From: Elusimicrobiota bacterium
Lineage (GTDB): Bacteria; Elusimicrobiota; Elusimicrobia; UBA1565
Assembly: GCA_016218495.1 (NCBI GenBank)
Contig: JACRDU010000124.1
Span: forward strand, 6,681 to 70,680
DNA length: 64,000 bases
Direction of reading: 5' to 3'
Part shown: one piece after another, positions 21,901 to 30,900 of the stretch
Position numbering within the stretch: position 1 is the stretch's first letter
Layout: each line of letters begins with the position of its first letter
Program-made: the position numbers

Positions 21901-24900
21901 ACGTCATCCAGCTCCTGCTGGACCTGGGGGCCGTCGTGACCTACCACGACCCCCACGTCCCCTCGGTGGCGGTGGGGCGCCGGCGCCTGCGCTCCGTGCC
22001 GCTGGCCGCCGGCGCGCGCTCCTGCGACGCCGCCGTCGTCCTGACCGCGCACCGCGGAGTGGACTACGGGCTCCTCCTCAAGAAGGCCCCGCTGGTCTTC
22101 GACACGCGCAACGCCCTGGCTGGACGCAGGGCGAGGAACCTGGCGAGGCTCTGATGGCCGACGAGGCCGAAGCCCAGGTCGCGGCGCGGGCCCTCGAGGT
22201 CCTGAAGTCCCTCGGCAAGACGCTCAGCCAGATCAACCTCTACAGCGCCGCCCATCCCGCCGTCCGCCGGCTGCTCGCGGACACGGCGGGGCTGCTGGCC
22301 ACGCTGCTGGCCGAGGTCTCCGGCGGCGAGCTGGCCTATTCCATCGACGGCCAGAAGCTGGTCGCCAACGGGCGCATCGTCGGGACGCTCGATAAGATCC
22401 CGAACTCCATCCCGAACGCCTTCTCCCGCTACAAGATCCACAGCGTCGTATTCCGACCGGGCGTCTCGGAGGACGAGCTGGCCGCGTTCTGCGACCTCGC
22501 CGCGCTGCGGCCGGAGGCGGCCAAGGGGGTCGACCCGACCGCTTTCCTCGCCGAGCGGAAGGTGGCGAACATCATCCTCAACGAGGCGATGTACGCCAAG
22601 GTCGACAAGACCGAGGAGGCGGCCCCCGGCGCCGTGCTGCAGGCGTCGGGCGGGTCCGGAGAGGGGATCGAGGAGCTGGTGCAGACCGCCGAAGGCAGGC
22701 CCATCGAGGACACCATCGCCGCCCTCGTGAGCCGGGCCACCCCCGACGCCGCCGAGCAGGCCCGGCTGATGGAGGCGGTGATGCGGCGGGTGCGCGAGGA
22801 CCTCGACCGCAAGGTGGCCGAGGCCACCACCGAGCTCAAGCGCCAGAAGCAGACCCTGGAGAACGAGGCGACGCGGACCCAGGGCGTCCTCGAGACGATG
22901 TCAGAAGGCGTCGTCGTCGTCGACGACCAGGGCAAGGTCCTGATGATGAACCCCGAGGCCGAGAACCTGTTCGGTTCCCGCCTCTCGGAACTGGCGGGCA
23001 AGCCCGTGGCGGAGGGGGGCAAGGAGGAGCATCTGGTCGCCCTGGCCAAGGACATGGTCGTCCCCCAGGACCGCCCGGCCGAGAAGGCCGCCGAGGTCAA
23101 GGCCACCGACGACACCAAGCGCACGCTGCGGGCCTCGACGGTGATGATCCAGAACGAGGCCGGCAAGACCGTCGGTATGGTCTCCGCCCTCTCGGACAAG
23201 GCCAAGCAGCGCGAGTTCGACCGCATGGAGCGCGAGTTCATCGCCCATGTCACCCACGAGCTGCGCTCCCCGCTGACCTCCATCCGCGCCGCCCTGGAGA
23301 TCATCGACGGGATGCTCGCCGGCAAGCTCGACGCCGAGGCCGGGCGCATGTTCTCGAACGCGCTGCGCAACACCGACCGCCTCGAGACCCTGATCAGCAG
23401 CATCCTGGACTTCTCGAAGCTCGAGTCGGGGCAGATGACCGTGCTCCCGGAGCGCGCCCTCGCCGCCAAGATCGGCTCGGAGGCGGTCGAGAGCCTGCGG
23501 CCCTGGTCGGTCAAGAAGGGCCTGCGGGTCGAGCTGCTCGACGGCTCCAGGGGCGCCGAGGTCATGGCCGACGTGCCGCGGACGGTGCAGGTCATCGTCA
23601 ACCTGCTCTCCAACGCCATCAAGTTCACCCCGAAGGGCGGGTCCATCACGGTGTCCCTCGAGCACGCCAGGGAGTCGCAGGAGCCCGCCATCCTCTACAC
23701 CGTCAAGGACACCGGCCCCGGCATCCCGAAGGACCAGCAGGATAAGGTCTTCGAGAAGTTCGTGCAGATCGCCTCGGGCGAGAGGCACGTCGGCGGCACC
23801 GGTCTGGGCCTGGCCATCGCCAAGGCCCTCGTCCACCTCCAGAAGGGGCGCATGTGGGTGGAGAGCGAGGTCGGCCGGGGCGCCGCCTTCCGCTTCACCC
23901 TGCCCGTCTACCAGCCTCCGCCCGACGAGGTCCGCCGCGCCGCCCCGCCGCCCGCGCCGAAGCCCTGGTGGAAGCGCCTGCTGGGGCTCTAGCGCCTCAG
24001 GCACGGGTCAGCACGAAAGCCCCCACCTGGGCGGCGCCGGCTTCGCGCAGCGCGGCGGCGCAGGCCGCCAAGGTCTCCCCGCTGGTCATCGCGTCGTCGA
24101 TGAGGAGTACGCGCAGCCCCGCGGCGTCCGGGGAGGCGCGGAACGCACCCGCCAGCCTCCCTTCCCGAGCCGCCCGCGCCTGACGCGCCTGCGGCGGCGT
24201 GTTGCGGGAGCGGTGCAAGAGGCGCCGTACCGGCAGGCCGTCCGCGGCGCCCACGGCCTCGGCCAAGACCTCGGCCTGATTGAACCCCCGTTCGGCCTCC
24301 CGGCGCGGATGCAGGGGGACCGGGACCAGGGCGTCGGGCACCCCCAGCTCCGGATAGCGCCGCCAACCCTCCGCCATCCATGCCGCCAGCAGGCGGCCGG
24401 CGTCGAGCCGCCCGCGGTACTTGAAGGCGTGCAGCAGCGGCGGGACGGGGCCCCTATAGGAGAAGGCGGCCCGCGTCACCGGGGTCTCCTCGGGCAGGGC
24501 GGGGCAGCGCAGGCAGGAGGGGCCCGAGGCTCTCGCCCCGCAACGGGGACAATAAGGAGGGCGGATGGGGGAGAGCCCGGCCAGGCAACCTGGGCAGGCG
24601 GGGCCCTCGAATCGAAGCGGGTCTCTGCAGACGGCGCAGGTGCGCGGGAAGAGGAGCTCCAGGAGGGGGGCGGCCCAGCTCACGATGCTGGTACGCGCGA
24701 GGGCCCCGGAAAGTTCCGTCGAAATCAGAACTGGAAGGTCAGCGTCGTGCCGAACTGGTAGGAGATGTAGTCCTCCTCCTTCAGGTACTTGTGCCAGAGG
24801 CGCGAGATGGCGCCGTTGAGGGTCATGCGCAGGTTCTTGGCGATCTCGTAGTCGGCGCTGGTGTTCATGTTCAGGAGGCGCGAGTTCTCCGACAGGGTGA

Positions 24901-27900: not shown

Positions 27901-30900
27901 TGTAGGCGGCCGAGGCCTCCTGGGTCGACGAGGTGAAGTCGTAGTCGAGTCGGAGGACCTTCTGGGTCTCCCCCGACTTCGCTTGGGCCGCCGGGTTGAT
28001 GACCAGGATCTCCTCGTCCTGGCTGGTGACGGTCAGGGTCTGGGCCCCGGTCGGCGCTGCGCCGGGGTTGGAGGCCTGGGTCCAGAAGCCGTCCGAGAAG
28101 CCGGCCGAGTCGTCCTGCTTGACGCCTTCCATGTTGTCGATGAGAGCGCGCTTGGAGAGGTTGGGGTTCGCGCGGCTCTGGGCGAGCTCGGCGCCGAAGG
28201 AGGCGGTCAGCCAGGAGGCCAGGCGCAGGTTGGTCAGCTGGGTGTCGGCCTCGTAGACGAGCAGGCTCTTGGCCAGCTCGTTGATCGTGGGCACGGAGGG
28301 GGACTTGGCCCCGGTCTGATAGAGCAGGGTGGAGCCGACCGACCACTTGTCCTTCCACAGCTCGAAGCCGAAGCGGGTGCCGAGCAGGCTCTCGGTGGCG
28401 TTCCCCGCGAACGGCGCGACTTCGAAGCTCACGTCGATGGTGGAGTCGGGGCGGATGCGGTCCTCGTTGAAGAAGGTCAGGAAGCCGGACTCGTAGTCGA
28501 TGAAGTAGTCGACGTTGCGGGTGAGCTTGGCTCCGTCGGCCAGGACCACCTCGGACTGCAGCACGAGGTTGGGCTCGAGGAAGAAGGTCTTGAGGCGGAA
28601 GCGGTATTCGGCCTGCAGGATCCTCTTCGTGATGGGGCTCGGGGCGTAGACCTCGGGGTCGGCCACCGTGGGCGAGGCGTTGGAGACCGAGAAGGGCTCC
28701 TTGAGCTGGAAGACGCCGTTCTCGAAGTCGACCTCGATGGTGTCGGGATAGACCTGGGGGGGGTCAGGGCCGCGCCGACGATGTTGCGGTTCTGGTCGAG
28801 CACGCGCAGGAAGAAGTTCCCGCGCCCGTCGTCGCGCAGGAGCTGCGAGCGCCCGATCGAGTAGAAGGTCTTGAGCTCGCGCTGGAAGCCCGCCTCGGCG
28901 GTCGTGGAGAGCTGGACGTCCCCGAACGTCTTGATGAGCTTGAGCCTCCCGGACCCGGCGGCCAGCACGGCCGTGTTCGTCGAGCTCTGGGCCGAGAGGG
29001 CGCGGGCCGTGGCGTCGACGAAGTCCGTCGCGATGACGGTGTTGGCGTCGAGGGTGTTCCGGAAGGTCAGGATGCCTTTGACGTAGTCGACGGTGTAGTC
29101 GACGCCGCGCGAGAGCTCTATGAAGTTGCCCGTGAAGGTGGATGCCGCGACGGCCAGGTCGTCGACCGTTCGGGAGACCTCGTTGACGTTCAGGGTCGCA
29201 GAGACCTGCCGGGAGAGGAAGACGCGCTCGCTGCCGGCCTGCAGCGGCAGGCGGCGCTTGTCCCCGAAGGTCAGGTCGTAGTAGCGGCGCCGGATGTAGC
29301 TCGTGTCGAGCAGGTCCTGGGTGGTGAACTGGGTGTTGCCCTTGAACTGCTTGGCCTTGGTCTGGCCCTTGGTGCGCGAGCCGATGAAGATGGCGCGCGC
29401 GCGCTTGTACTTGAGGTCCACCCTGATGCCGAAGAGCTGCTTGTTGTAGCTGACGAACTCGGTGGCGGGCAGGCTCAGGTCGATGTCGCCGAAGGAGGCG
29501 TTCTGGACGACCTCGTTGGGGTCGCCCTGGTACACCACGGAGATGTCCTGCTTGTTCGTCTTCGTGTCGTCATAGTCGACGTTGACGGTGATCTTCGGCC
29601 CGACCTTGCCCTGCATGCGCAGCTGCAGCTGCTGCTCGATGTCGATGAGGTTCTGGCTCTTGCCCCGCCCGCTCGTCTTCTGGTCGGAGAGGAAGCGCTT
29701 CTCCGTGAACGAGAAGCCCACCACCTTGCGCCCCGTGATCGAGAGGCTGGTCCCGTAGGTCGGCAGCTCCACCTCGGGGGTGGGCGGCTTGGGCGGCTCG
29801 GTGGCGCCCGCGATGACGTATTCGTCGGCCGGGGCCATCGACGGGGGCAGGGGGACCTCGAACTCCTCGCCCGGGGTCTTGCCGGCGTCGACCTGCTCGC
29901 GGATCCTGTTCCACAGGCCCTGGTCGACCTCGAAGGGCTTCTGCTCGAGGAGCAGCCGGTCGAAGCCCCTCCCGGGCTGGGCCGCGGGCGCCGGCGTCCC
30001 GAGGGGCTTGCTCTGGTCGGGGCGCTCGAGCAGCAGGAAGGGGCCGGCAGTCGTCGGAGCCGGGGTGTCGGCCGCCTGGGGCCCGGCCTCGGGCTGGGCC
30101 GCGGGGCCGTCTTCCGGGCCCTTAGGGGCCTCCGCGGGCGTCTGCTGGGGGAAGTCGGGGTCGTAGGGGAAGGAGAACTGCCCGTACGCGCTCGCGCGTG
30201 AGAGCGCGAACGCCATGAAGAGCGCCAGGAGCGGCCTTTTGAGGGGTGCAGTCGCCAAAGATGCCTGAGTTTTCCGCGGAGATGCTCGGCGGCCCGCGTG
30301 GCAAGTTTAACCGGGCCGTGTTACGGCGTCAAGTCTCCGGGAAGTGGTATGATTCCTCGTCGGAGATGCCCATCCTCGCACGCTACCTGCTCGCCGCATA
30401 CCTGCCGCCCTTCTCCCTGTGCCTCGGCGTCTTCCTGGCCGTCCTGCTGATGAACTACTTCCTGCGCCTCTTCAACATAGCGGTGACGAAGGGGATCTCG
30501 GTGGGCTGGATCTTCCTGTGCTTCGCGAAGCTGTCCCCCTATTTTCTGAGCCTGGCCCTGCCGATGGCCTTCCTCGTCGCGCTGCTCTTGACGCTGGGGC
30601 AGCTCTCCGAGAGCGGGGAGGTCATGGCCCTGCGCGCGTCCGGGTATTCGTTCCGCGAGCTGCTCAAGCCCTACTTCGCCCTAGCGCTGCTGCTGACCGC
30701 ATTCCTCTTCTTCACGAACCATTGGGCCAGCCCGACGGGCTTCCATGCCTTCCGCGAGTCCTATGCGGACGCGCTGGCGCGCGTCTCCCGCCTCGATTTC
30801 GAACCGCGCGCGCTCAACCGCCTGGGGGACTGGGAGATCTACTCGGACGCCGTCGAGGACGGGGGTGGCCGCCTGTCCGGCGTCCGGCTGGTCAAACGCA

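Follow-up and report, generated by a model that had tools for sequence, protein, structure and literature searches.

SprA (Sov) is the outer membrane translocon of Bacteroidota type IX secretion systems (T9SS) and is represented by PDB entries 6H3I and 8GL8 and by the TIGR04189 and PF14349 families. A genome survey found T9SS to be restricted to Bacteroidetes (PMC4793230). Coding homopolymers that gain or lose single bases form another relevant class of systems. Poly-G/C tracts of Campylobacter and Bordetella are presented as slipping systems, and homopolymeric tracts of at least 7 bases have been treated as phase-variable in Mycobacterium tuberculosis (bioRxiv 10.1101/2022.06.10.495637; see also PMC2831843). 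Here, we describe a 64,000-nucleotide stretch of DNA (the window) from an Elusimicrobiota bacterium of the GTDB lineage UBA1565 (assembly GCA_016218495.1, contig JACRDU010000124.1, positions 6,681 to 70,680), which carries a gene for a giant SprA-like protein whose reading frame breaks at a run of eight C's.

The gene lies in a region of about 67 to 68% G+C, compared with 70.6% for the whole window. Because such high-GC DNA yields many spurious long open reading frames (ORFs), genes were defined by the periodicity of G+C content at third codon positions (GC3) together with homology. The gene and its parts are as follows.

24725..30258, minus strand: the whole SprA-like gene, delimited by ORFs, GC3, and homology
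28756..30258, minus strand: N-terminal coding part of the SprA-like gene, residues 1-501
28756..28763, minus strand: C8 homopolymer (G8 on the plus strand), the site of the reading-frame change
28477..28755, minus strand: tail of the N-terminal ORF in the wrong frame (RSIPTPSRSTSRTASSSS..., 92 codons and a stop), S/P/R-rich and of low complexity
24725..28756, minus strand: C-terminal part of the coding sequence (QVYPDTIEVDFENG ... TLTFQF, a stop after about 1343 codons), giant β-barrel strands

The C8 run takes in the second and third bases of the codon for Thr499 together with Pro codons 500 and 501, and its last C is the first base of CAG (Gln) in the downstream frame. It is the single G/C run of at least 7 bases in the gene. 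The N-terminal ORF (28477..30258) ends its true coding sequence at ...RVLDQNRNIVGAALTPP (...NIVGAALTPP); the tail beyond this point does not represent real protein, and the genuine coding frame downstream is overlapped by it. The C-terminal part, which is in the -1 frame with respect to the N-terminal part, reads QVYPDTIEVDFENGVFQLKEPF... and stays open as far as the stop at 24725. Across the run, the G+C fractions at the three codon positions change from 0.61, 0.96, and 0.36 to 1.00, 0.48, and 0.61, with the GC3 phase flipping exactly there. A tblastn search with the nearest orthologue as the query produces two high-scoring segment pairs (HSPs) that meet at 28744-28765, one in frame -2 (orthologue residues 1-485, 30222..28744) and the other in frame -1 (orthologue residues 479-1838, 28765..24728). 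The ORFs, the GC3 flip, and the HSP junction all bear out the preliminary description of this DNA, which placed the interruption exactly at the G8/C8 tract; the ORF translations also agree with its reading of an N-terminal frame that runs to ...GAALTPP at the tract and a C-terminal frame that resumes after it. The start codon is probably the TTG at 30258, which gives a Sec-type signal peptide, MATAPLKRPLLALFMAFALSRASA/YGQ; an alternative start, the ATG at 30216, is picked by Prodigal on a contig from the Logan assemblies.

The length of the run that would restore the protein differs from the one first proposed, which was one C fewer. In silico, a C7 run leads into a third, non-coding frame without a stop down to 24725, and its product is nonsense (..TPPGLSRHHRGRLR..). 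This third frame is open for 1588 codons (23997-28763, minus strand) and continues into the ComF-like gene downstream, so that removal of one C creates an apparent single ORF. Its length is a high-GC artefact, and its codon-position GC pattern is not coding-like. The homologous halves are rejoined at C9 (one C added), which yields a protein of 1844 amino acids (aa), or at C6 (two removed), which yields 1843 aa. The spacing of the junction in the orthologues equals that of the C9 product, LTPPQVYP, and the C6 product is one residue shorter. Because the orthologue spacing matches C9, the expected sequence is ACC CCC CCC CAG (T-P-P-Q), and the window is one base short of it. The junction peptide of the restored or read-through product is ..ALTPPQVYPDTIEVDFENGVFQLK...

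A protein search with the restored sequence retrieves more than 100 full-length homologues (1790-1990 aa, 99-100% query coverage, 48-72% identity), all from metagenome-assembled genomes (MAGs) of Elusimicrobia/Elusimicrobiota and every one annotated as “hypothetical.” A genome scan, with one genome per GTDB species, returned 78 distinct Elusimicrobiota loci. At all 78, the junction peptide aligns in one frame through the site, with the conserved spacing L-[NT]-P-x-Q-x-Y-P, and none of the 78 is frameshifted. The orthologues are thus not split; split orthologues are what the preliminary description had linked to a true two-gene arrangement. An apparent double frameshift in locus L077 (MAG RIFCSPHIGHO2_02_FULL_57_9; 3042-3082 and 5024-5036) was rejected, as the tblastn breaks coincide with scaffold N runs. 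A long C run at the junction is likewise seen in none of the 78 orthologues, the longest being 6, and the run is therefore specific to the lineage of the window. In the two nearest relatives, the junction codons are AAC CCG CCC CAG (L001) and AAC CCG CGT CAG (L002).

Other signs of decay are absent from the gene. The window copy retains 296 of the 298 residues that are invariant in 33 homologues (106/106 before the run and 190/192 after it); in a leave-one-out control, intact homologues lose 1 to 6 of them. A single lesion is present in 5.5 kb, and each half matches the orthologue from end to end. Alignments of 13 syntenic genes with those of the nearest relative (54-89% identity) cover their full length in a single frame; the SprA-like gene alone splits. 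The GC3-based map contains about 52 tightly packed genes in the window, with the sole intragenic frame change at 28756-28763. Seven other frame switches close to G/C runs (9070, 11884, 37876, 47382, 53336/53429, 54491, and 60630) were considered and set aside, as they represent gene boundaries with a stop codon at or near each; throughout the window, frame switches other than that at the C8 run fall on stop codons at gene boundaries. Judged from the sequence, the locus is one gene, not two. The pseudogene option of the preliminary description, in its old or decaying form, is ruled out by the single lesion, the retention of the invariant residues, and the continuity of all 78 orthologue loci.

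As a homopolymer, the C8 run is unremarkable. The window contains 14 G/C runs of at least 7 bases and 5 of at least 8, compared with 21.5 +/- 4.3 and 7.6 +/- 2.6, respectively, expected from synonymous-codon shuffles that keep the proteins; the counts are thus at or below the codon-usage expectation. CCC accounts for 50% of the Pro codons in the window genes. What goes beyond chance is that the sole frame break among about 52 genes falls on an 8-nt run within a 5.5-kb gene. The other 13 runs of at least 7 bases are all in frame and encode Pro-Pro or Gly-Gly. Nine of them are located in Pfam-recognised enzyme genes, with domain matches that flank or extend beyond the run (GT4, AAA_14/DUF4143 ATPase, PBP1, alpha-2-macroglobulin with two runs, carbamoyltransferase, phosphoglucomutase, CoA transferase, and PMT_2). 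The longest in-frame runs are these.

53943-53950: G8
55265-55273: G9, in the DUF4143 ATPase gene
61211-61218: G8
35089-35096: G8

Three of these, at about 53943, 55265, and 61212, had been correctly listed as lying in frame within genes, and these genes are intact; the fourth had not been listed. It reads GGG GGG GG(C) on the plus strand and is placed at codon 155 in the gene for a 327-aa protein that neither Pfam nor NCBIfam matches.

Taken together, these data make it probable that the break is incidental, a slip of one base in a Pro-Pro codon run specific to this lineage, and not an evolved switch or a recoding site. An ACC codon followed by two CCC proline codons would give a run meant to be nine C's, which would exist through codon usage alone; a strand-slippage contraction from C9 to C8, which we infer, would throw the downstream sequence into the -1 frame. 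This could have happened by a technical route, through a polymerase, basecalling, or consensus error at the homopolymer, or by a biological one, through very recent replication slippage that generated a null allele, maybe still heterogeneous in the population. The two routes appear about equally likely, each falling somewhat short of an even chance. A technical origin is suggested by the classic error signature, one base under-called in a run that ranks among the longest, and also by the fact that the gene is otherwise perfect and is never disrupted in 78 species. A biological origin is favoured by the in-frame state of all other long runs, by the exact agreement with an independent assembly where the two overlap, and by the nature of 8-9 G/C runs as natural slippage hot spots. 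The independent assembly is Logan contig L081 (SRR12113407; exact LptG match), whose 4459 bp are 100% identical to positions 29607-34065 of the window and which ends 850 nt short of the C8 run; the organism is present in SRR12113407. The single-gene ancestry of the locus, the exact site of the break, its repair by one added C, the absence of decay, and the lack of conservation of the run are established. Of the three options in the preliminary description, assembly error and a very recent slipped-strand allele stand, an old pseudogene falls, and an evolved switch is weakened.

Several observations weigh against an incidental slip. An independent assembly spanning the run was found neither in the genome scan, nor with a metagenome pattern, nor by exact look-ups. 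None of the loci from the genome scan exceeds 72% identity, and the same species is not among the GTDB representatives; the pattern GGCGCGGCCCTGA-N{5,12}-AGGTCTATCCCGACACC has 0 matches in the metagenome contigs. Exact look-ups of the possible C8 products (579, 1313, 385, and 1235 aa) and of neighbouring or run-bearing proteins (the histidine kinase, the ComF-like protein, the DUF4143 ATPase with the G9 run, and the GT4 protein with a G8 run) returned no record, and the partial SprA-like product of contig L081 is not in the collection. The ancestral sequence could have been ACC CCG CCC CAG (compare L001), in which case loss of the G would have created the run. The window has 5 runs of at least 8 bases in 64 kb, compared with 13 in 819 kb of related high-GC loci, which makes it some 3 to 5 times richer per kb in long G/C runs. 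This excess could hint at a slippage-tolerant lineage; the higher GC content of the window would explain part of it, and codon usage may contribute as well. Finally, the gene product is a surface-exposed machine, a class often under phase variation.

A rival proposal is a poly-C contingency locus, with heterogeneity of run length as its hallmark, that would switch a SprA-like translocon reversibly between ON (C9) and OFF (C8), the assembly having caught an OFF majority. At lengths of 8-9, slippage is frequent in known systems, and the C8 run is built like that of a contingency gene: it lies within a gene, it exceeds the length of about 7 at which slipping begins, a change of one base in either direction from C8 shifts the frame, and C9 encodes a perfect 1844-aa protein. 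The lack of decay in the SprA-like gene fits as well, and sloppy assembly is argued against by the in-frame calls of the remaining homopolymers and the 4.46 kb that equal the Logan contig. However, the run is missing from all 78 orthologues, where C runs do not exceed 6 and the nearest relatives have CCG CCC or CCG CGT. Runs of this kind are not above the codon-usage expectation, and the others sit in housekeeping or envelope enzymes. Moreover, the run is located at codons 499-501 of 1844, 27% into the gene and far from its 5' end, and the gene is never disrupted elsewhere, which suggests that it is not dispensable. An evolved switch, one of the options of the preliminary description, is thus weakened by a run that is neither conserved nor enriched nor close to the 5' end, and we regard it as unlikely.

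Recoding, in which a true C8 run would be read into a full-length protein by -1 ribosomal slippage on C CCC CCC or by an RNA polymerase that adds a C, is less probable still. The 0-frame sequence C CCC CCC is a formal X XXY YYZ heptamer, on which a -1 slip of two tRNA-Pro would give the homologue-like T-P-P-Q-V-Y; the 0-frame codon after the run is AGG (6% of Arg codons), which could favour pausing, and a gene without decay would be expected here, too. However, RNA folding is unexceptional compared with shuffled sequences (minimum-free-energy z-scores of -0.75 in the downstream 100 nt and -0.26 in 71 nt across the run), there is no Shine-Dalgarno-like (GGAGG-like) motif in the 40 nt upstream of the run, and no orthologue needs a frameshift, all 78 being read in one frame. 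Documented cases of efficient transcriptional slippage mainly involve A/T rather than C/G runs. The least probable reading, a long-standing pseudogene or a true two-gene arrangement with a 593-aa N-terminal protein and a separately translated C-terminal one, is effectively refuted. In its favour, the two ORFs are both long, and translation of a 1313-aa product might in principle begin at a GTG at 28666. However, such a C-terminal product would have no signal peptide, the last 92 codons of the N-terminal ORF are out-of-frame low-complexity sequence, and the GC3 periodicity switches at the run rather than at a start codon; a single lesion in 5.5 kb with 296/298 invariant residues kept, next to 78/78 single-ORF orthologues, is equally at odds with both versions. 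An incidental slip remains the preferred explanation.

The sequence profile and the predicted fold support the assignment of the interrupted protein as a distant homologue of the T9SS translocon SprA/Sov. The NCBIfam model TIGR04189 (T9SS outer membrane translocon Sov/SprA) matches it in 3 stretches with 138.6 bits (E value of 1.3e-40), which is below the curated cutoff of 200, so that the proposed membership in the SprA family is backed by homology and fold rather than by the curated score cutoff. There is no Pfam match for the window copy; PF14349 is precomputed for some of the homologues. A profile of 34 family sequences matches Flavobacterium johnsoniae SprA (6H3I_A) with an E value of 8.1e-22 in four significant collinear segments (family profile 197-329, 571-648, 873-1120, and 1153-1221, aligned with SprA 159-292, 701-778, 1158-1403, and 1475-1541, respectively) and in a fifth segment below the threshold; a single-sequence phmmer search finds no match. 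An AlphaFold2 model of the C-terminal 1200 aa (residues 645-1844; predicted local distance difference test score, pLDDT, of 74.5) is dominated by antiparallel strands, of which about 30 long ones lie in the last 650 aa. In a Foldseek search of the PDB with this model, the top four matches are all SprA chains (E values of 3.6e-33 to 1e-24, query TM-score [TMq] of 0.52-0.54), and the next match has an E value of 1.6e-5. The SprA homology and fold, the signal peptide, and the terminal ..TLTFQF are in accord with the original description of the product as an outer-membrane barrel. All sampled lineages of Elusimicrobiota contain the family, of about 1800-1900 aa, among them MAGs with the labels Candidatus Endomicrobium trichonymphae and Elusimicrobium sp. 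No title or abstract found pairs “type IX secretion” with “Elusimicrobia,” and Pfam and/or NCBIfam scans of 40 neighbouring window genes reveal no T9SS family besides one PorV/PorQ-like candidate.

The genes closest to the SprA-like gene and that candidate are the following.

30366..32530, plus strand: lptF and lptG (lipopolysaccharide [LPS] export permeases), divergent from the SprA-like gene
23997..24683, minus strand: ComF-like gene (double zinc ribbon with phosphoribosyltransferase), immediately downstream
36034..37323, minus strand: TraF_2-family outer-membrane protein, 429 aa (Pfam TraF_2, 66.7 bits)

The giant barrel is recurrently linked to the LPS export permeases: divergent lptF/lptG genes adjoin the SprA-like gene in 20 of the 53 loci with upstream DNA of 3 kb or more, and these loci span 40-72% identity. 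The ComF-like gene is found within 10 kb downstream in 34 of the 65 loci with at least 1.5 kb of downstream DNA. The TraF_2 protein, encoded 6 kb from the SprA-like gene, is weakly matched by the PorV/PorQ family of NCBIfam (49.6 bits, short of the cutoff of 90). SprA has PorV as its partner, and the TraF_2 protein is a possible candidate for this role next to the SprA-like protein. TraF_2 homologues are found within 10 kb of the SprA-like gene in L003, L021, L043, L058, and L066, with tandem pairs in L043 and L058.

Two more regions of the window encode envelope functions. On the minus strand, positions 9822-17704 encode an alpha-2-macroglobulin (1912 aa; MG, bait, and A2M domains) followed by a PBP1C-type protein (Transgly, Transpeptidase, and BiPBP_C domains), an arrangement that resembles the known A2M-PbpC pair. 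Both the alpha-2-macroglobulin and the penicillin-binding gene are intact despite three C7 runs (two and one, respectively). Positions 38992-63998 are occupied by a long, mostly minus-strand envelope polysaccharide cluster. It includes genes for nucleotidyl transferases, phosphomannomutase, GT1, GT2, and GT4 glycosyltransferases, a DegT aminotransferase, Bac_transf, and methyltransferases, along with two PMT_2-like proteins, a Wzy_C O-antigen ligase-like protein, and the inserted DUF4143 ATPase with its G9 run.

The break is an ordinary one-base homopolymer frameshift, and its value lies mainly in the correction of the annotation and in the gene family that it exposes. If it is technical, the locus should be annotated as one intact 1844-aa SprA-like protein; neither two “hypothetical proteins” nor a pseudogene would be appropriate. 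Were the break real, the sampled population would carry a null allele, with the gene otherwise intact throughout the phylum; the implication would be that a large surface machine is conditionally dispensable or shows ON/OFF heterogeneity. Should the doubtful case of a switch prove true, it would represent contingency-locus phase variation of a T9SS-like pore in a free-living, uncultured, high-GC Elusimicrobiota bacterium. To our knowledge, Elusimicrobiota, an environmental phylum, has no described case of phase variation or of type IX-like secretion. As a by-product, the gene family holds more interest: it is a giant SprA-like barrel, spread through the phylum and so far annotated only as hypothetical, that often adjoins lptFG, has a PorV-like gene nearby in the nearest relatives, and is found outside the usual T9SS group.

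Comparison with described systems places the break and the protein as follows. With dnaX-type -1 frameshifting and transcriptional slippage, the window site shares a formal slippery heptamer, C CCC CCC, and a homologue-like -1 product, but it lacks a stimulatory structure, a Shine-Dalgarno-like element, and conservation. With poly-G/C phase variation (Campylobacter, Bordetella, and the 7-C tract of M. tuberculosis glpK), it shares a coding poly-C run of 8-9 in which a change of one base toggles between full-length and truncated products, an affected envelope protein, and, with Mycobacterium, a high-GC genome. In contrast to those systems, the run is not conserved in the 78 orthologues, lies 27% into the gene, and has a length known from one assembly, and the runs of the window do not exceed the codon-usage expectation and belong mostly to ordinary enzymes. 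Homopolymer under-call errors resemble it in the deletion of one base in one of the longest runs of a region, breaking a perfect conserved gene, whereas here the 13 other runs of at least 7 bases (among them one G9 and three G8) all keep the frame, nothing else among about 52 genes is broken, and 4.46 kb are identical to the Logan assembly. As for the protein, it differs from SprA/Sov (PDB 6H3I and 8GL8; TIGR04189; PF14349) in its size (1844 aa versus about 2400 aa), in scoring under the TIGR04189 cutoff without a Pfam match, in its Elusimicrobiota host, given that T9SS was surveyed as Bacteroidetes-restricted (PMC4793230), and in its surroundings, with no GldK/L/M/N-type genes seen in the window and lptFG often adjoining the family. 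With SprA it shares collinear profile homology, strong fold matches to SprA only, a signal peptide, the C-terminal ..TLTFQF, and a weakly PorV/PorQ-like gene nearby in the window.

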